From assembly GCF_000017845.1 (NCBI RefSeq), contig NC_010546.1:60001-92000 (forward strand): DNA of 32,000 bases, in the 5' to 3' direction. Below are positions 5,167 to 30,340 of the stretch, one piece after another (position 1 is the stretch's first letter; every line of letters begins with the position of its first letter). Position numbers and translations under genes: made by a program. Source of the stretch: Crocosphaera subtropica ATCC 51142 (GTDB lineage Bacteria > Cyanobacteriota > Cyanobacteriia > Cyanobacteriales > Microcystaceae). Below the pieces are notes generated by a model that saw only the letters and a list, made by a program, of their open reading frames with translations, was not told the origin of the DNA and did not search any database.

Positions 5167-5616
5167 TTAAAAAATAGGACTTACTTTTGTGGTAAACCCA
5201 GACGCTTTAAATTTCTTCAATTTTAATGGAGTTGGTTGATTCGCTGGAACCGTAATTCTGACTTCAAAATCGCTCACTCCTGGGGGAACTTCTGCAATGG
5301 AACCTACACGACTTCTGTTTTGTAAAGCAGGTTCATTATTAGCATCTAAAATCCGTCCGAAAACATCAGCATCATAAACGGTTTTACCCGATGTATTTTT
5401 AGCTTTTCCTGTGATAATGTAACAGTCGGCAGGAAGACTGGAACCCCCACTGGTAACATTGCCTTCTGCTAGTTCTGGCGGACAATCTTTATAAGAAATA
5501 TCGAATAAATCAATATTAGTTAAAGCCAAAGCTGGTTGACTCCAGAAGCTGGTGAGTAAAGAGAAGACACACCCTATTATTATTGCGATCGCATAGGTTC
5601 TAATAGACTGTAACAT
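5167..5616 (-). CDS. Hypothetical exported protein (N-terminal signal-like segment ending ALALT)
   Basis: 149-aa ORF with a hydrophobic N-terminus followed by a soluble Gly/Ser/Asn-rich domain. I recognised no family motif. Confidence 0.6.
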   Translation of the reverse strand: MLQSIRTYAIAIIIGCVFSLLTSFWSQPALALTNIDLFDISYKDCPPELAEGNVTSGGSSLPADCYIITGKAKNTSGKTVYDADVFGRILDANNEPALQNRSRVGSIAEVPPGVSDFEVRITVPANQPTPLKLKKFKASGFTTKVSPIF

Positions 5617-5710
5617 TAATTATTTCCTCAACTTGTGGTCTTATAGGTAATATAGGCTTCTTGATTATTATAATAACAAGATAACTCATCTCAATTTACA
5701 AAATTATCTC

Positions 5711-6640
5711 ATGGTTCGGCGTTTTATCCAATGTTTACCCATCCTGTTAGCTGTCTCTTTATTAACTCTTTCTATTGTCACCATTACCCATGAGTTTAAA
5801 GCCCATAATCCCACTGAAATTTTACACTATTTAAGTAACCTTCCTACAACTCGCAAAATAGGTGTCATTGCCTTGACAAGTTTAGGCTATTTCATTATGA
5901 CAGGTTACGATTTTTTGGGATTTCATTATATTGATAAGTTCTTAAAACCCTCTAAAATTATTATTACCGCTTTCATTAGTTATGCCGTGGGTAATACTAT
6001 TGGTTTTACCGCTTTTTCTGGAACAGCAATTCGTTACCGTTTTTATGGGAGTTGGGGCATTTCTAAGCTAAAAATTGCTCAATTGATTATCTTTACTCAT
6101 TTGACTTTTTGGGTTGGTTTATTAGGAGTTAGTGGTGTTGTTTTTTTGATTGATCCTTTAAGTTTACCCAATATTTTAAATCTACCTTTTCAATCTGCTC
6201 ATCCCATTGGTTTTATCTTTTTAATTTTAGTTTCTGTTTATTTTTTAATTAGCTTTTTTAGAAAACGACCTTTAAAAATTGGCTCAGAATTCATTAATTT
6301 TCCTTCGCCTAAAATCTCTTTAGCTTCTATTGGCATTGCTGCTATGGACTGGGGAGTAGCTTCAGGGGTATTATATTTATTACTTCCCTTATCAAAAATT
6401 GTTTCATTTCCTGGCTTTTTTGGAATTTATATTTTAGGATTAACGGCTGGTTTAATTAGTAATGTTCCTGGAGGATTAGGGGTTTTTGAAACCGTGATTT
6501 TATTATCCCTTCCTAATACTATTTCTCAAGCCGATATCTTAGGAGGATTAATTGCTTATCGAGCTATTTATTACTTTTTACCCTTGATAGTTGCCATTAT
6601 TTTGTTGATCATTAAAGAAATACAACAACAAAGAGTTTAA
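5711..6640 (+). CDS. UPF0104 / lysylphosphatidylglycerol-synthase-TM-region-like (flippase-like) integral membrane protein
   Basis: 309-aa polytopic ORF. The PGGLGVFE motif near the C-terminus is typical of this family. Confidence 0.7.
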   Translation: MVRRFIQCLPILLAVSLLTLSIVTITHEFKAHNPTEILHYLSNLPTTRKIGVIALTSLGYFIMTGYDFLGFHYIDKFLKPSKIIITAFISYAVGNTIGFTAFSGTAIRYRFYGSWGISKLKIAQLIIFTHLTFWVGLLGVSGVVFLIDPLSLPNILNLPFQSAHPIGFIFLILVSVYFLISFFRKRPLKIGSEFINFPSPKISLASIGIAAMDWGVASGVLYLLLPLSKIVSFPGFFGIYILGLTAGLISNVPGGLGVFETVILLSLPNTISQADILGGLIAYRAIYYFLPLIVAIILLIIKEIQQQRV

Positions 6641-22372: not shown

Positions 22373-23197
22373 ATGAAAACAGATACTATTTTTTATCGTC
22401 TCTTTCAATCTTTTCCTAGCATTTTCTTTGAATTAATTCAAGTTCCCGTTACCCAAGCAGATAACTATCGCTTTGATTCCGTAGAAGTTAAACAATTAGC
22501 TTTTCGTATTGATGGGGTATTTCTTCCGAAAAATAATAACCTTGACAGTCCCATTTATTTCTGTGAGTTACAATTTCAAAAGGATGATCAATTTTATGAA
22601 CGTTTCTTTGCTGAAATCTTCTTATATCTCAGTAAAACCGAATTAAATAATGATTGGCAAGGAGTGATTATTTATCCTAATCGTCAAATAGAAACGCAAC
22701 AAACACAACGTTATCAAGAAGTGTTAAATTCCCCAAGAATTACTCGTATTTATTTAGATGAGTTAGCCAATCTTAATCAAACCTCAATTGGGTTAGCAAC
22801 GATAAAATTAATTACCTTACCTTCAGCAGAAACCATTGAAAATACCCGTCAACTCATACAAAGAGTAAAAGGAGAATTCAACCCTGACCAAAAACCCCAA
22901 GAACTCTTACAATTAATAGAGACTATCCTTGTGTATAAATTACCCCGTTTAAGTCGTCAGAAGGTAGAAGCGATGTTTAGTTTAGATGAATTAAAGCAAA
23001 CTCAATATTTTCAAGATGTCCGTGAAGAAGCAAAACTTGAGGGTATCCAAGAAGGAGAGTTAAGGGCAAAAATTACTTCTGTACCCAGTCTTTTAGCCTT
23101 AGGTTTAACTGTTGAACAAGTCGCAGAAGCGTTAAAGTTAGATATTGAACAAGTTAGACTCATACAAAATAATAACGAACAAGGGGCGGATCAGTAG
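22373..23197 (+). CDS. Rpn-family / DUF2887-type PD-(D/E)XK recombination-promoting nuclease (putative transposase-like)
   Basis: 274-aa ORF. The N-terminus MKTDTIFYRLFQSFPSIFFELI and the FRIDGVFLP...IYFCELQFQKD (D...ExQ) nuclease core are typical of this multi-copy cyanobacterial family. Confidence 0.75.
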   Translation: MKTDTIFYRLFQSFPSIFFELIQVPVTQADNYRFDSVEVKQLAFRIDGVFLPKNNNLDSPIYFCELQFQKDDQFYERFFAEIFLYLSKTELNNDWQGVIIYPNRQIETQQTQRYQEVLNSPRITRIYLDELANLNQTSIGLATIKLITLPSAETIENTRQLIQRVKGEFNPDQKPQELLQLIETILVYKLPRLSRQKVEAMFSLDELKQTQYFQDVREEAKLEGIQEGELRAKITSVPSLLALGLTVEQVAEALKLDIEQVRLIQNNNEQGADQ

Positions 23198-26099: not shown

Positions 26100-26124
26100 T
26101 ATCTCCGTAGAGAGGGAGGAGATA
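26100..26124 (+). promoter_or_regulatory. Hairpin able to sequester the Shine-Dalgarno site and start codon of the TIR-fusion gene
   Basis: TATCTCC (26100-26106) is the exact reverse complement of GGAGATA (26118-26124). The 3' arm contains part of the GGGAGGAG ribosome-binding site and the A of the ATG at 26124. Confidence 0.4.
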
Positions 26125-27719
26125 TGTATAATCAACCTGACGCTAATAAATTTGAATTTGATGTTTTTCTAGCTCACAATCACGACGATAAGCGACAGAT
26201 AAGAAGTATTGCCCACGAACTCAAATTACGTTTTATAAAACCTTGGTTCGATGAAGAGCAAGTTCCTCCAGGCACTCCATTTGGACGGATAATTGAAGAG
26301 GCAATTCCCAAAGTTAAATCGGCTGCAATCTTTATAGGTAAAAATGGTCTAGGAAATTGGCAAAAAGCAGAACAGCAAGCATTGAACCAAAGATGCGTTG
26401 ACGAAGGAATTGCTATGATTCCTGTCTTACTACCAGAGGTTGATCAGGTTCCTGAAGATATAAAGACTTTGTTTTTGATTCAACTACATAGCTGCGTGAA
26501 GTTTGATAAAGGAATTTATGACGTTAAGGCACTAGACAATCTAGAGTGGGGCATTACTGGACGTAGACCTCGAAGGGAACATTATGGAATACTAGTTAAT
26601 ATTCCCAACTACCAAACAAGCTGTTTTTTAGCAATGCCGAAACGGGGATTAGATAGTATTTACGAGTCACTCAAAGATGTAGCTAAGGAGGTATCAGTCA
26701 AACAATTAGTCAATAACACAGGCATCGAACTAATTCAAACCAAAAATAAGAGTGATCAAGGCTTTGTAGGTGATATAAATGAGATAATTCACAAAATTCG
26801 TTCATCTGAGGTGGTTGTGGGGGTGTGCGTTTCAGAAGAGAAATCTTCTCAGCTAGATCCAGATGTGGCATACGAATTAGGACTAGCTCATGCTCTGGGT
26901 AAACCGCTTTGCATCATTACTGATAAGACTACTCACCAATCTCTTTCTGACTATATTCTTAAAGACATACCAGAGGATGAATTTATTGACTACGAGTTGT
27001 CGAAAAGTAAAGGAACTTTGAGTGACGAACTCAAAAACAAGTTAGAAGAGATTCTTAAGTCTCTAAAGTTCCCTTATTTAGTTGAGCCGAGAAATCGAGA
27101 TATTAGTGCTATAAATTGGGAGAAAACACAATGTTTTCTTCCGAATTTTCAAAATAATTTCTGTAATATTCTTCGTTTTGGACTAGAGATTCATACGGAA
27201 TTTCCCTCTCTCCAAACTCTTCTTACAAGTCTTTATAAAGAGATCGAAGAAGTTGCGGAAACTCTGCAAGATCCAAGCACAACTAGAAATCTAGAAAAGG
27301 AGATTAATGATGTTATCAAGGCTTGGAAAGACTATAAACAGAAATATGAAGGATTATACCCACTCAATTCAAATAACGCTCAATTGAGGGAATTTAAAGA
27401 TACCAAAGACTTCAACAGTCTTAAAGATTCTTTCCAGAGTTTGCAATCGGATATGAGTACCAGAAACCAATTTGGAAAACAATCCTATCAAGCGTATAAA
27501 ATAGTTATCCAAATAATTGAAGCTTATCCTAATCTTCATCAACGCTTATCCGATATTTTAGATAATGAGGAGGTTTTCAATATGTTACAGAAATTTGTGA
27601 ATGTTGATTCCTTGGGTAAAGATGTTAAAAGATTAATCGGAGACATTGACCAATTAGTATATATGCGTGCAGGTACTATGATGAGAAATCTGGCAGAAAT
27701 GATTTGCTGTAATCAATAA
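26124..27719 (+). CDS. TIR domain / nucleoside 2-deoxyribosyltransferase (DNPH1/Rcl)-like domain fusion protein with ~200-aa helical C-terminal region
   Basis: 531-aa ORF with a strong SD. Residues ~11-140 (FDVFLAHNHDDKRQIRSIAHEL...PWFDEEQVPPG...IEEAIPKVKSAAIFIGKNGLGNWQKAEQQAL...IPVLLPE) follow the bacterial TIR_2 pattern, with candidate catalytic Glu83 (GAA 26370-26372). Residues ~165-270 have a flavodoxin-like alternation and LDPDVAYELGLAHALGKPLCIIT. That resembles the NDT/DNPH1 hallmark (D/S-x-G-x-x-[FY]-E-x-G-x-A-x-A-x-x-K-P), with Glu251 at 26874-26876. Confidence 0.75.
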   Translation: MYNQPDANKFEFDVFLAHNHDDKRQIRSIAHELKLRFIKPWFDEEQVPPGTPFGRIIEEAIPKVKSAAIFIGKNGLGNWQKAEQQALNQRCVDEGIAMIPVLLPEVDQVPEDIKTLFLIQLHSCVKFDKGIYDVKALDNLEWGITGRRPRREHYGILVNIPNYQTSCFLAMPKRGLDSIYESLKDVAKEVSVKQLVNNTGIELIQTKNKSDQGFVGDINEIIHKIRSSEVVVGVCVSEEKSSQLDPDVAYELGLAHALGKPLCIITDKTTHQSLSDYILKDIPEDEFIDYELSKSKGTLSDELKNKLEEILKSLKFPYLVEPRNRDISAINWEKTQCFLPNFQNNFCNILRFGLEIHTEFPSLQTLLTSLYKEIEEVAETLQDPSTTRNLEKEINDVIKAWKDYKQKYEGLYPLNSNNAQLREFKDTKDFNSLKDSFQSLQSDMSTRNQFGKQSYQAYKIVIQIIEAYPNLHQRLSDILDNEEVFNMLQKFVNVDSLGKDVKRLIGDIDQLVYMRAGTMMRNLAEMICCNQ

Positions 27720-27741: not shown

Positions 27742-28899
27742 ATGAGTACACTAGAATGTGAAGTCAACCAAAGCTTGGATTTTTCGTCACTTAAGAATTG
27801 TCATGAAGAACTTTACCAAAAAGTTAGTGATATCATCATTAAGCAAGAAATATCAGAAACACAAAAAGAAAAAAATGACTGTTCTAAGGAAATGCAGGAG
27901 GTTAGTGATAGTGTAAAAAACCTTCTCAAAAATCTTGCAGAATTTGCTCCACAAGTTACTTCAATTGATGAATCCAATTGGGTGAGAGAAGCTTCTTATG
28001 AATGGGGTGCTGTGGGAGATTGTCTTGACCTAAACTTGTCCTTGTTGGACACAACAGAGAAACATACAAAGGTGGGAAATATTGGACAAAAAATTCTGTC
28101 TTTATTGCCTAATGAAATTCCAGAATTTTCTTTAACGCCAAAAATCTCTAAGAAATATCTAGAAAAAGAGGCTTACTGCTTAGGTCAGGCTCGAAAAGAA
28201 AGATTGCTAAAAAAATTACTCGGCGAATATCGGCATCTTATTCATAACCTAATTCCAAGCGATTTAGAGAATATGAAAATGGACTGGTGTAGTGCTTGCA
28301 CCTATTTTTCTTCTAAAATTCTCGAAGGTAAGCTAGATTTTTCTTCTCAAATCGAATCTGACTTATATCATTACTTAGAAGAAGTCTGGTTAGAAGATGT
28401 TAAGCACCTGAGAGCTTACGAAATTTGGTGGAAGAAGGGACATAATCGGATTTACGAAGAATCTACCACAGTTAATTATTATTTCCAAGCTTGTCAACAA
28501 ATAATGGCTAGTCTTGTTGATCCTTATATCAAAGCTCCCTTCAGTCGGTTTGAAGAACTAAAAAATTACTTAAAAAATTGCTATTTGACTGAGGAGGGAA
28601 AACTTGATAAAGACAAGTCGAATACCTTGATAGAGATCAAAGCTCATCGAATTTGGGAAACAACAAATAACTCCAATAGTTCAGAAAACTGGTCATCTGC
28701 TCAACAGTATGTTGAAGATTTCTATGAAAATATTATTCCTGCTGTGGTAGATGGTGATCTCGAAAGCATTACTAAGGTTAAAAATGCCATTCAAGCTATC
28801 AACGATCCTACTCATTACCACATTATTAACTGTTTTGAAGTGGCACTCGTTATCTACTTTCTTCCTTCAGACGTACTGGAAGATGTTGAGAAACTTTAG
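27742..28899 (+). CDS. Hypothetical helical protein with DUF2934-like repeated motifs
   Basis: 385-aa ORF, 22 bp after gene 1, with AGGAG 7 nt upstream of the ATG. The motifs VKHLRAYEIWWKKGH...NYYFQAC and IKAHRIWETTNN...NWSSAQQYV resemble the DUF2934 RAYxxW...W..A pattern. I saw no enzymatic motif. Confidence 0.6.
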   Translation: MSTLECEVNQSLDFSSLKNCHEELYQKVSDIIIKQEISETQKEKNDCSKEMQEVSDSVKNLLKNLAEFAPQVTSIDESNWVREASYEWGAVGDCLDLNLSLLDTTEKHTKVGNIGQKILSLLPNEIPEFSLTPKISKKYLEKEAYCLGQARKERLLKKLLGEYRHLIHNLIPSDLENMKMDWCSACTYFSSKILEGKLDFSSQIESDLYHYLEEVWLEDVKHLRAYEIWWKKGHNRIYEESTTVNYYFQACQQIMASLVDPYIKAPFSRFEELKNYLKNCYLTEEGKLDKDKSNTLIEIKAHRIWETTNNSNSSENWSSAQQYVEDFYENIIPAVVDGDLESITKVKNAIQAINDPTHYHIINCFEVALVIYFLPSDVLEDVEKL

Positions 28900-28916: not shown

Positions 28917-29768
28917 ATGAAGAAACATCTCCTTGTTTCACTAGCTCTAATACTGTCAGTGGTTTTAGTGTCAAAAGTTCCACCATTGGTCAACGTTTCA
29001 GCATCTAACGCTCCTCAAATAAACCTTGAAGCAGAAATACAAGGGTTAGCTCATAGTGATGTCAAGGACAACATTCCCAGACGCACTGATTTTGTTATTG
29101 AACTTTATCACGATAACTCTCAACATCTAACCCCTCCAGAGATTAGGAAAATTTACGATGAAGCTTACAGTCAACAAGTACGAAAAAAACGCATTGTCAG
29201 GAAATTTGTTGGGTCAGCAATTGCTATTTTGATCATTGTTCTGTCTATTTTAGCGATCGCTATATGGTTATCGGATAAGACAGGAGTCCCTACCTTAAAG
29301 CGAGTGTCTGTTAATCTTCCTTTCGGTATTGGTTGTATTGAATTAGAAATCAACAGGGTAGAACAAATAGTAGCATGGTCACTGTATGTGGAACTGGTTA
29401 CACGCATTGCTATTCAGCCTCTTAAATCAGATGAAGGACTCTTAAAGGAAGCACTAACCTCACTACATAGCTTGTTTGACACAACCCGTCAGATTCTTAA
29501 AGAAGCTGGGCCAGTTGTGGGTGTCTCTCCTCAGTCAGTTGGTGGTATAGCGATTGCTGTACTCAATCAAGGTATTCGTCCTTTCCTTGCTAAATGGCAT
29601 CCTGCTTTAGAAGATTGGGAATCAAAATGTCTCAGTACCACCAGTAATAAACAACACGAGAAAAACTGGGATCAAGAACCACAGTTACGCCATGAACTGG
29701 AATTACTCAGACACCATCTAAAGCAATATGCAGACGCATTGGCTAAAATTGCTGATGTAACCTTTTGA
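28917..29768 (+). CDS. Membrane protein with two hydrophobic segments and a ~160-aa helical C-terminal domain
   Basis: 283-aa ORF, 17 bp after gene 2. The hydrophobic segments are aa 5-19 (signal-like, ...VSA/SN) and aa 97-118 (FVGSAIAILIIVLSILAIAIWL), the latter preceded by RKKRIVRK. The C-terminal domain is AWSLYVELVTRIAIQPL...LFDTTRQILKEAGP...LNQGIRPFLAKWHPALEDWE. Confidence 0.65.
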   Translation: MKKHLLVSLALILSVVLVSKVPPLVNVSASNAPQINLEAEIQGLAHSDVKDNIPRRTDFVIELYHDNSQHLTPPEIRKIYDEAYSQQVRKKRIVRKFVGSAIAILIIVLSILAIAIWLSDKTGVPTLKRVSVNLPFGIGCIELEINRVEQIVAWSLYVELVTRIAIQPLKSDEGLLKEALTSLHSLFDTTRQILKEAGPVVGVSPQSVGGIAIAVLNQGIRPFLAKWHPALEDWESKCLSTTSNKQHEKNWDQEPQLRHELELLRHHLKQYADALAKIADVTF

Positions 29769-29797: not shown

Positions 29798-30340
29798 ATG
29801 TTTATTATGAATCAAGAAAGAATTATTTTTGGCAGTGACTGGGTTACTGTTAAAGAAACAGCGAGAGGCTTTCAGTATTTGGAGAGGAAAGGAAAAGATT
29901 CAGTCGCAGTATTTCTTTTGAGAAGAAAAAAGCTAAATTCACAAGCTTATGAAGTAATGATTCGGCAACAGCCCCTTTGTATTGATAATCACGAACTTCA
30001 TGGGAAACTCAAACTCTATCCTTGTCCCATCACTGGGGGGATTGATCAAGGAGAAACCCCAGAACAAGCAGCTATTAGGGAAGTTGAGGAAGAATCGGGT
30101 TTTTCAGTGCAGGTTTTGCCTCTCGGTCGATATATTGTCGGGACACAAACTAATGAAATCTGCTATTTATATTATGCTGATGTCACTAAACTAGAGCCAG
30201 AAGAAGCGAAACAAGATGGCACTTACTTCGAGTTGATCAGTAAAAATGAATGGCATGATTTTGAGTATTTGAGTCAGTGTGATTATTCAGCTTGTCAGAT
30301 AGGGTATTTTCGGTTGAAAAATGTGTTGGATCTTGACTGA
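29798..30340 (+). CDS. Nudix hydrolase
   Basis: 180-aa ORF (alternative ATG at 29807). GGIDQGETPEQAAIREVEEESGF, aa 80-102, nt ~30035-30103, matches the Nudix box Gx5Ex7REUxEExGU exactly. Confidence 0.85.
   Translation: MFIMNQERIIFGSDWVTVKETARGFQYLERKGKDSVAVFLLRRKKLNSQAYEVMIRQQPLCIDNHELHGKLKLYPCPITGGIDQGETPEQAAIREVEEESGFSVQVLPLGRYIVGTQTNEICYLYYADVTKLEPEEAKQDGTYFELISKNEWHDFEYLSQCDYSACQIGYFRLKNVLDLD

Follow-up and report, generated by a model that had tools for sequence, protein, structure and literature searches.

The window considered here is a stretch of 32,000 nucleotides (nt) from the Crocosphaera subtropica ATCC 51142 genome (contig NC_010546.1, positions 60,001–92,000 of the forward strand), and all coordinates below count from its first letter. 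Its + strand carries a cassette of four genes, namely gene A (26124..27719, ATG start, 531 amino acids (aa)), gene B, gene C and a NUDIX hydrolase gene, of which the first is confirmed as a tandem fusion of a TIR domain and a nucleoside 2-deoxyribosyltransferase (NDT)/DNPH1-like domain followed by a C-terminal helical domain, here termed HEL, with all three parts far beyond chance. The exact gene A protein is recorded in assemblies (Logan) sharing the identical four-gene layout; a word-indexed protein search, which is candidate-limited, missed this very sequence and returned a best match of 56% identity. A full-length AlphaFold2 (AF2) model built on a mixed alignment of 56 sequences (predicted local distance difference test score (pLDDT) 87.7; predicted template modelling score (pTM) 0.65) comprises three units: a TIR fold (residues 12–145), a second alpha/beta domain (164–312) and long helices (327–528).

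Three domains in one polypeptide

The TIR domain (26154..26561, + strand; residues ~11–146) is delimited by Pfam, AF2, Foldseek and profile searches. Pfam TIR_2 (STIR clan) matches residues 14–122 (E=1.5e-13; 51.7 bits vs a cutoff of 28), and pLDDT exceeds 90 across most of residues 11–145, which adopt a flavodoxin-like five-stranded alpha/beta fold. Against the PDB, Foldseek pairs this fold with AbTir (7uxu; the best match), the SARM1 TIR and TLR TIRs, with target-normalised TM-scores (TMt) of 0.72–0.75 for AbTir and SARM1, while a TIR-only profile searched against solved structures retrieves Cat1 (1e-11), TIR-STING (9e-10), AbTir (1.4e-9) and BtTir (2e-8). The candidate catalytic glutamate, Glu83 of W79-x-x-x-E83 (codon 26370..26372, + strand), aligns in the TIR-profile alignment with the Glu in AbTir DWTNYELD, which we take, by our own numbering of the 7uwg construct, to be the catalytic E208. 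The residue is E in 96/104 related TIR rows and in 32 of the 33 three-domain proteins; gene A has the catalytic-position glutamate of enzymatic TIRs (helix alpha-C), and oligomerisation-dependent NAD+ cleavage is the predicted activity.

The same domain (26154–26561) is 50–60% identical to the TIRs of filamentous cyanobacterial proteins (P0007–P0066) in which the TIR is fused to GUN4, WD40, NACHT/AAA, helicase, GGDEF, Ras-like GTPase or other domains; with the TIRs of three-domain relatives outside the cyanobacteria it shares only ~35% identity. This closer affinity to other cyanobacterial TIR fusions than to the three-domain relatives hints at lineage-specific cassette shuffling or homogenisation.

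The middle, NDT/DNPH1-like (DrHyd-superfamily) domain (26601..27068, + strand; residues ~160–315), delimited by profile and by a domain-only model, is preceded by an extra AF2 beta-strand, YGILV (26583..26597, + strand; residues 154–158), of which Y154, I156 and L157 are invariant in alignment A1 and which is shared by TIR-less relatives. The motif LDPDVAYELGLAHALGKPLCIIT is confirmed at residues 244–266, with the signature LDPDVAYELGLAHALGKP at residues 244–261 (26853..26906, + strand) and the Glu251 codon at 26874–26876. As a single sequence, the protein scores below the gathering cutoff of Pfam Nuc_deoxyrib_tr (PF05014; E=1.1e-5, 26.0 bits, cutoff 28.8), and the middle domain is therefore filed at superfamily level and not as a PF05014 member; the same Pfam family matches at E<1e-3 in 24/30 three-domain relatives, with a best value of 1.4e-7. 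Searched against solved structures, a 26-sequence family profile finds Rcl/DNPH1 (E=5.8e-10), Leishmania NDT (2.3e-6), T. brucei NDT (6.7e-6) and CMP N-glycosidase (1.7e-3), and TIR-type structures far more weakly (Cap12, 4.9e-3; a TIR entry, 0.69). E251 of YELG falls on the catalytic Glu of Rcl/DNPH1/NDT (YELG/FELG) in the profile alignments, which stop short of beta-1 and leave the site of the beta-1 Tyr of NDT/Rcl uncovered. The domain-only model (residues 150–325; pLDDT 81.4) has Chroococcidiopsis and Leishmania NDT, MilB and DNPH1 as its top Foldseek matches (E ~2e-4, TMt up to 0.76); the top 16 are nearly all NDT/MilB/DNPH1, and no TIR occurs among the top 50. Profile, fold and catalytic Glu together place the middle domain in the NDT/DNPH1/MilB superfamily, for which a glycosidase activity is predicted only.

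Across the NDT-like family the signature reads CFVAMPF ... R.D ... NPNVMYELGLAHALGKP ... PFD ... Y. Six residues before the catalytic Glu the window protein has D245, and most of the family has N, at a position that we take, by our own reading of those sequences, to be the equivalent of LlNDT D92 and Rcl S87, where NDT has its 3'-OH-binding Asp and DNPH1 its phosphate-binding Ser. An assignment of the middle domain as a second TIR, or as a TIR of the CAP12/Pycsar/ThsB type, was considered and rejected as weaker than NDT/DNPH1 by profile and by fold, the CAP12/Pycsar TIR family (PF10137) scoring 16.6 bits vs a cutoff of 24.7 (E=0.0084).

HEL (27099..27707, + strand; residues ~326–528) is modelled by AF2 as long helices of high pLDDT. 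Sequence and fold searches for its relatives (Pfam, profiles, Foldseek against the PDB, BFVD) gave nothing informative and returned only de novo helical bundles. A MazG-like reading of residues 359–398 (Pfam E=0.03; 2yxh, 0.035) was discarded: the acidic metal-binding motif (E-x-x-E...E-x-x-D) is unconserved, with E373 in 28, E375 in 47 and E379 in 17 of 133 family rows, and it is without fold support, no MazG appearing in the Foldseek top 50 of the gene A model.

An earlier note on this DNA, made from the letters alone, had proposed one polypeptide in which a TIR_2 domain with a conserved Glu83 (residues ~11–140) is followed by an NDT/DNPH1-like N-glycosidase-fold domain, and this layout is supported by the above-threshold Pfam TIR_2 match, the placement of E83 on the AbTir Glu, the family profile and Foldseek. 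The profile match and the structural match fixed beforehand as tests of the middle domain were both obtained; E251 aligns with the catalytic Glu of NDT/DNPH1, whose surrounding segment the motif had been said to mirror, and the proposed identity of the domain stands, with an extent somewhat wider (~160–315) than the ~165–270 first given. The helical character of residues ~330–531, then without a known relative, is borne out by the AF2 helices at ~326–528. That both folds belong to one assemblage was claimed as well: an hhalign comparison of the two domains of gene A sets E83 opposite E251, a pairing that fits the published unification of TIR, DrHyd and SLOG as one clade (PMC9503650), but the domain-to-domain score itself is weak (E=0.011, probability 3.7%).

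The TIR-less majority and the two glutamates

Searched exhaustively as a profile, the part of gene A outside the TIR yielded 356 representatives at E<=1e-10, most of which are NDT-like+HEL proteins of 350–370 aa without a TIR; ~30 are 500–570 aa long, with TIR_2 in 28/30, and the three-domain, TIR-fused proteins amount to ~33 family representatives (50%-identity clusters). The NDT-like family at large numbers 5688 representatives at E<=1e-3.

Alignment of all fetched proteins to the family hidden Markov model allowed both glutamates to be counted. The E251 position is E in 220/235 proteins with an NDT-like domain, all losses lying inside the TIR-fused clade: the residue is kept in 89/90 (99%) TIR-less NDT+HEL proteins and in 98/98 (100%) NDT-domain-only proteins, and in 19/33 TIR-fused proteins, the 14 replacements being 7 Q, 3 A, 2 L and 2 D. 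The alignments are locally unambiguous at these losses, as in VAYQLGMAHALGKP and CMFLLGYATSLGKP, and gene B is retained downstream of an E251L protein (E=1.6e-75). Other pocket residues have decayed in the TIR-fused group as well, including D281 (2/26) and H256, with N245 lost in 33/33. A crude neighbour-joining tree of the NDT+HEL region groups the TIR-fused proteins in one clade, within which the Glu was replaced independently ~7 times; the history shown by tree and alignments is a single ancestral TIR fusion, followed by repeated loss of the NDT-like Glu with the TIR Glu kept.

Loss of the NDT-like Glu in 14/33 proteins in which the TIR Glu is kept in 32/33 suggests overlapping jobs for the two domains, and the simplest reading is that NDT-like catalysis may have become dispensable once the TIR had been gained. 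The subclade to which the window protein belongs (7 sequences, 32–58% identity) keeps F168, P172, Y250, E251, G253, K260, D281 and Y290, the pocket being whole except for N245D and N247D; its preservation despite 32–58% identity implies continued selection on the pocket. The Crocosphaera protein thereby appears as a version that still maintains both sites: both look intact, and the protein looks two-headed.

The NDT-like domain is also fused to SLOG (LDcluster4), AbiJ-NTD5, pentapeptide repeats, TPR and protein kinase domains in uncharacterised, conflict-type architectures (P0087, P0088, P0093, P0096, P0097, P0109, P0112, P0116, P0120 and P0154–P0166), and such fusion partners have been described for Abi-type toxins (PMC3710099). 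In one full-length relative of gene A (P0002; 879 aa), TIR–NDT–HEL is preceded at the N-terminus by a further domain of ~350 aa, a ParA/AAA_31-like ATPase, and in locus L001 a separate ParA/CbiA-like gene lies ~3.5 kb downstream.

Partner gene, exchangeable heads and locus context

The cassette runs in the order A–B–C–NUDIX with gaps of 22, 17 and 29 nt, all on the + strand; neither this operon nor the large TIR-less family and the swappable heads described below featured in the earlier note. Gene B (27742..28899, + strand) encodes 385 aa divided into B-N (~1–130) and the more conserved B-C (~155–378), and matches, at 100% identity, a protein of Crocosphaera subtropica ATCC 51142 labelled ‘unknown’. 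No Pfam family scores above threshold, the best being DUF2934 (E=0.0018 in 2/6 members), and no relative was found in the PDB; at least 8 homologs, all unnamed, were returned by the word-indexed search. Residues ~220–330 hold two copies of a DUF2934-like motif (hlkAYxiW...; KAYRLWE..G....NW..AE.YV). The B proteins are soluble and 385–450 aa long, with no transmembrane (TM) segment beyond one marginal hydrophobic stretch. Homology of B to A was rejected at an hhalign probability of only 0.3%.

TIR-less A relatives are immediately followed by a B homolog in Acidobacteriota (L005, L006), on a metagenome contig (L008) and in Alphaproteobacteria (L019, L020), and B homologs follow A relatives in the cyanobacterial loci L001, L002/L010 and L012. 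The presence of B beside TIR-less members in several lineages marks A–B as a pair conserved across phyla, with TIR, C and NUDIX as later additions. Toxin–antitoxin (TA) genes or an integrase are found near several A relatives.

Viewed from gene B, in 41 metagenome loci encoding its relatives, the HEL-bearing proteins directly upstream always carry HEL at the C-terminus, and their heads differ. An NDT-like head is commonest (L089 and many others), alongside TIR+NDT-like and TIR alone (L076), and Pfam identifies a CHAT caspase-like peptidase (L075, L078), an adenylate/guanylate cyclase (Guanylate_cyc; L081) and the effector-associated domain (EAD) EAD7 (L067). HEL is upstream in 21/25 loci where B has B-N vs 0/8 where only B-C is present (de-duplicated; Fisher p=3.6e-5). 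Where B-C stands alone, it lies beside short NDT-like+TIR proteins without HEL (L095–L097) or beside a convergent TIR gene (L098). In a further locus (L082:1921-4795), a SIR2_2 gene runs into the start of a gene encoding an nSTAND1 NTPase of 660 aa, the last 255 aa of which are B-C (E=3e-74); the arrangement looks like a STAND-type system with B-C in the sensor position.

Gene C (28917..29768, + strand; 283 aa) has, by hydropathy, a hydrophobic segment at 1–29 and a TM segment at ~97–119, followed by a conserved C-terminal domain (129–283). The NUDIX hydrolase gene (29798..30340, + strand; Pfam NUDIX E=1.3e-11) has an intact Nudix box, GGIDQGETPEQAAIREVEEESGF, at residues 80–102 (nt 30035–30103, + strand). 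Homologs of C occur after B in cyanobacterial loci only (L001, L002/L010 and L012); NUDIX comes after C in L012 too, at 69% identity to the window, and not in L001 or L002, and was dismissed as a core component on the grounds that it is kept only in the window and L012.

In L012:3566-4855 and L063:140-1513 (Xenococcaceae metagenome-assembled genome (MAG)) the A homolog looks degraded: its TIR is split over separate open reading frames (ORFs), and the protein called there (P0068; 265 aa) is missing ~100 residues of HEL as well as beta-1 of the NDT-like domain. The downstream genes B, C and NUDIX are intact, at 60–69% identity to the window. In a Calothrix MAG, the C homolog (L002:5585-6430) contains an in-frame stop that separates ORFs 5585-5818 and 5870-6430 and is spanned by tblastn, reflecting a nonsense mutation or a sequencing error. 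The NUDIX position after C in this Calothrix locus is held by an unannotated protein of 517 aa (L002:6592-8145) whose C-terminal motifs are rich in Cys and zinc-ribbon-like.

Elsewhere in the window, a 274-aa ORF at 22373-23197 (DUF2887, E=4.8e-85) is the only non-housekeeping-looking gene of the upstream flank. No tRNAs were found in the window, and a promoter/terminator scan gave nothing above shuffled expectation. A viral origin was considered and rejected: IMG/VR gave five weak NDT-domain matches only, and Foldseek against BFVD was uninformative.

Interpretation and relation to known systems

It is considered somewhat probable that gene A encodes the effector subunit of a modular conflict system, most likely of the anti-phage abortive-infection type, with HEL and B as its constant core. 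HEL would dock onto B-N, and B, via B-C, would sense or gate an infection-related cue and control assembly or activation of the heads, which, once activated, would cleave N-glycosidic bonds, the likeliest substrate being NAD(P)+ for both the TIR and the NDT-like domain; growth arrest would follow from NAD+ depletion and/or ADP-ribose-derived products. Gene C, as a membrane anchor, and NUDIX may be cyanobacterial add-ons, the latter plausibly processing an ADP-ribose-type product or guarding against leaky activity, and the window protein would be the two-headed version of an effector in which, in many relatives, the TIR has taken over. Where the earlier note had proposed the helical region as a sensor or oligomerisation part, it is better regarded as a constant part that would dock with B than as a sensor in its own right.

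NAD+ is favoured because TIRs are NAD+ specialists (PMC9503650), because NDT-fold and TIR-like defence effectors hydrolyse NAD(P)+ (PMC12673091; bioRxiv 10.64898/2026.05.01.722283), and because the linked NUDIX gene would be accounted for by a product of the ADP-ribose type. The NDT-like effector of Retron-Eco1, which works as a tripartite TA system, hydrolyses NAD(P)+ (PMC12673091), and DUF4062/Swarozyc is a TIR-like defence effector with proven NAD(P)+ hydrolase activity (bioRxiv 10.64898/2026.05.01.722283). The suggestion, also from the earlier note, that the two domains attack two substrate pools is disfavoured, given the loss of the NDT-like Glu in 14/33 vs retention of the TIR Glu in 32/33 and the precedent of an NAD(P)+-hydrolysing NDT-fold effector.

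TIR and NDT-fold immune effectors, like modular conflict systems, are of already known kinds, and bacterial conflict systems share an effector set of TIR, DrHyd (NDT), caspase, cyclase, SIR2 and EADs (PMC7159879, PMC8195603). No description of the tandem TIR+NDT head, the HEL adaptor or the B partner appears to exist in the searchable literature, a scope outside which lies Burroughs et al. 2015 (Nucleic Acids Research), which may mention a TIR–DrHyd fusion. A wider and more tentative proposal, on which we would put rather less than even weight, is that HEL+B forms the constant core of an unrecognised, widespread immune system in which one sensor (B) drives interchangeable heads (NDT-like, TIR, caspase-like, cyclase, EAD-recruited), and that the TIR-fused clade is a natural experiment in which TIR and NDT-like domains, as interchangeable NAD+-directed effectors, range from double-active, as in the Crocosphaera protein, to TIR-only. 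If true, this would establish a new two-gene defence family of at least ~120 clusters (50% identity) for the NDT+HEL form alone, and two new domains, the HEL adaptor and the sensor-position module B-C, which a STAND NTPase carries as well; it would, besides, be evolutionary evidence for a shared job of NDT-like and TIR heads, and a guide to substrate assignment across the ‘NPNVMYELGLAHALGKP’ NDT-like family of 5688 representatives.

Several observations weigh against the interpretation of gene A as a conflict-system effector. Both Asn of NPNVMYE are replaced in the TIR-fused clade, giving DPD in the window protein, from which it follows that the window pocket differs from that of the TIR-less majority; the closest solved relatives of the NDT-like domain act on deoxynucleoside monophosphates (dNMPs) and nucleosides, not NAD+, and a nucleotide substrate is therefore still possible. 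The window flanks consist of housekeeping genes (MetH, ClC, CtpA, RsmH, MobA-like), not a defence island, and the cassette is flanked by no repeats or mobility genes beyond short, chance-level repeats. PADLOC offers models for neither B nor C and yields only generic TIR hits for A, and the host is unicellular, unlike most hosts of comparable Aravind-type systems. The putative docking of HEL onto B-N derives from co-occurrence, and the likely role of B as sensor or regulator from its position and one STAND fusion.

Among the alternatives, a non-catalytic NDT-like domain serving the TIRs as a dimerisation or scaffold module, with the TIR as sole enzyme, is doubtful. NDTs are obligate oligomers (dimers or hexamers), and TIR NADases depend on oligomerisation (bioRxiv 10.1101/2023.08.16.553469; bioRxiv 10.64898/2026.05.01.722283), and such a role would suit both the dispensability of the NDT-like Glu in 14/33 TIR-fused relatives and the loss of N245 in 33/33, but not the intact pocket of the seven-sequence window subclade at 32–58% identity. 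A signalling relay, in which the TIR makes an ADP-ribose-derived messenger that the NDT-like domain, B or C senses, with the effector elsewhere (for example C) and NUDIX as the off-switch, is judged unlikely. TIR, DrHyd and SLOG domains can indeed generate signals or act as non-catalytic sensors (PMC9503650), E-to-Q exchange in the NDT-like domain (7/33) is of the type that can keep binding and abolish catalysis, the operon includes a membrane protein (C) and a NUDIX gene, and the best Foldseek TIR match, AbTir, is a producer of a cyclic ADP-ribose isomer. The ~90 TIR-less NDT+HEL proteins, however, pair with B and keep the Glu, and the ancestral job of the NDT-like domain therefore cannot be the sensing of a cis-TIR product; decay of D281 (2/26) and H256 in the TIR-fused clade speaks against a ligand pocket under conservation, most loci lack C and NUDIX, and the occurrence of CHAT or a cyclase in the same position fits interchangeable effector or signalling heads, not a fixed TIR-to-NDT relay.

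An equally improbable account is a plain toxin–antitoxin or addiction pair, in which A is an NAD+- or nucleotide-degrading toxin and B its antitoxin, with no dedicated phage sensing. The tight two-gene operon, with genes overlapping or nearly adjacent, the TA genes near several loci and the tripartite TA organisation of Retron-Eco1 with its NDT-like toxin (PMC12673091) are in keeping with it; B is nevertheless large (385–450 aa), with a conserved domain that can occupy the sensor position in a STAND NTPase (L082), a head diversity extending to EAD7 and CHAT is what regulated immune systems, not simple TA pairs, typically show (PMC7159879), and TA and abortive-infection roles are not mutually exclusive. 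Least credible of all is a housekeeping role as a DNPH1/NDT-type salvage or nucleotide-sanitising enzyme working with NUDIX, the TIR being a mere protein-interaction module: the closest solved relatives are DNPH1 (a 5-hydroxymethyl-deoxyuridine monophosphate hydrolase), NDT and MilB, the flanking genes are housekeeping and a NUDIX gene lies downstream, yet the distribution is patchy, with few reference genomes, the heads are exchanged for caspase-like, cyclase, SIR2 and EAD domains, AbiJ-NTD5 is among the fusion partners of the NDT-like family, the catalytic Glu of the TIR is strictly kept and no NCBIfam equivalog was found for gene A.

The interpretation of gene A as the effector of a modular conflict system can be set against characterised counterparts of each of its parts. 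AbTir, BtTir, Thoeris ThsB, Cat1 and TIR-STING/Cap12 share with gene A the TIR fold and the AbTir-aligned W-x-x-x-E motif; unlike these, gene A has no ThsA, SAVED, STING or CARF partner, its TIR precedes an NDT-like and a novel helical domain, and it is paired with protein B. Thoeris itself was rejected as an identification, the PADLOC ThsB hits being weak (5.8e-5, 3.3e-3) and a ThsA-like (SIR2/Macro-SLOG) neighbour absent. With the NDT/DNPH1(Rcl)/MilB superfamily (Pfam clan Nribosyltransf; the ‘DrHyd’ of Burroughs et al.), the middle domain shares the fold and the [YF]-E-x-G segment, from which it is set apart as a distinct subfamily by the signature CFVAMPF...NPNVMYELGLAHALGKP...PFD...Y (DPDVAYE in the TIR-fused clade) and by its additional domains. 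Retron-Eco1 (Ec86), an NDT-fold anti-phage effector restrained by partner components (PMC12673091; bioRxiv 10.1101/2023.08.16.553469), resembles gene A in the role proposed for the latter, and differs in its C-terminal domain and partner; unlike Retron-Eco1, the window has no reverse transcriptase domain among its ORFs and no multicopy single-stranded DNA (msDNA), the NDT-like family profile does not match the retron effector at E<=1, and the NCBIfam retron-TIR model matches the TIR region only (26.6 bits vs a cutoff of 600).

At the level of whole systems, those described by Kaur, Burroughs, Iyer and Aravind (VMAP, iSTAND, EACC1-caspase, nSTAND1) display the same head repertoire on a constant core (PMC7159879, PMC8195603), whereas the HEL+B core matches none of the cores described there and the locus is without a vWA-MoxR or GTPase switch. 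The EACC1-caspase system, conceptually the nearest, was set aside, EACC1 being a single-TM 5' component followed by the caspase gene, and B a soluble 3' protein. Swarozyc shares with gene A a TIR/NDT-related head on a helical region, coupled (in gene A presumably) to a sensing module, with NAD+ depletion as the Swarozyc output (bioRxiv 10.64898/2026.05.01.722283); it is, however, a single protein with a DUF4062 head and its own AUX domain, whereas gene A carries two tandem heads and its presumed sensor is the separate protein B.

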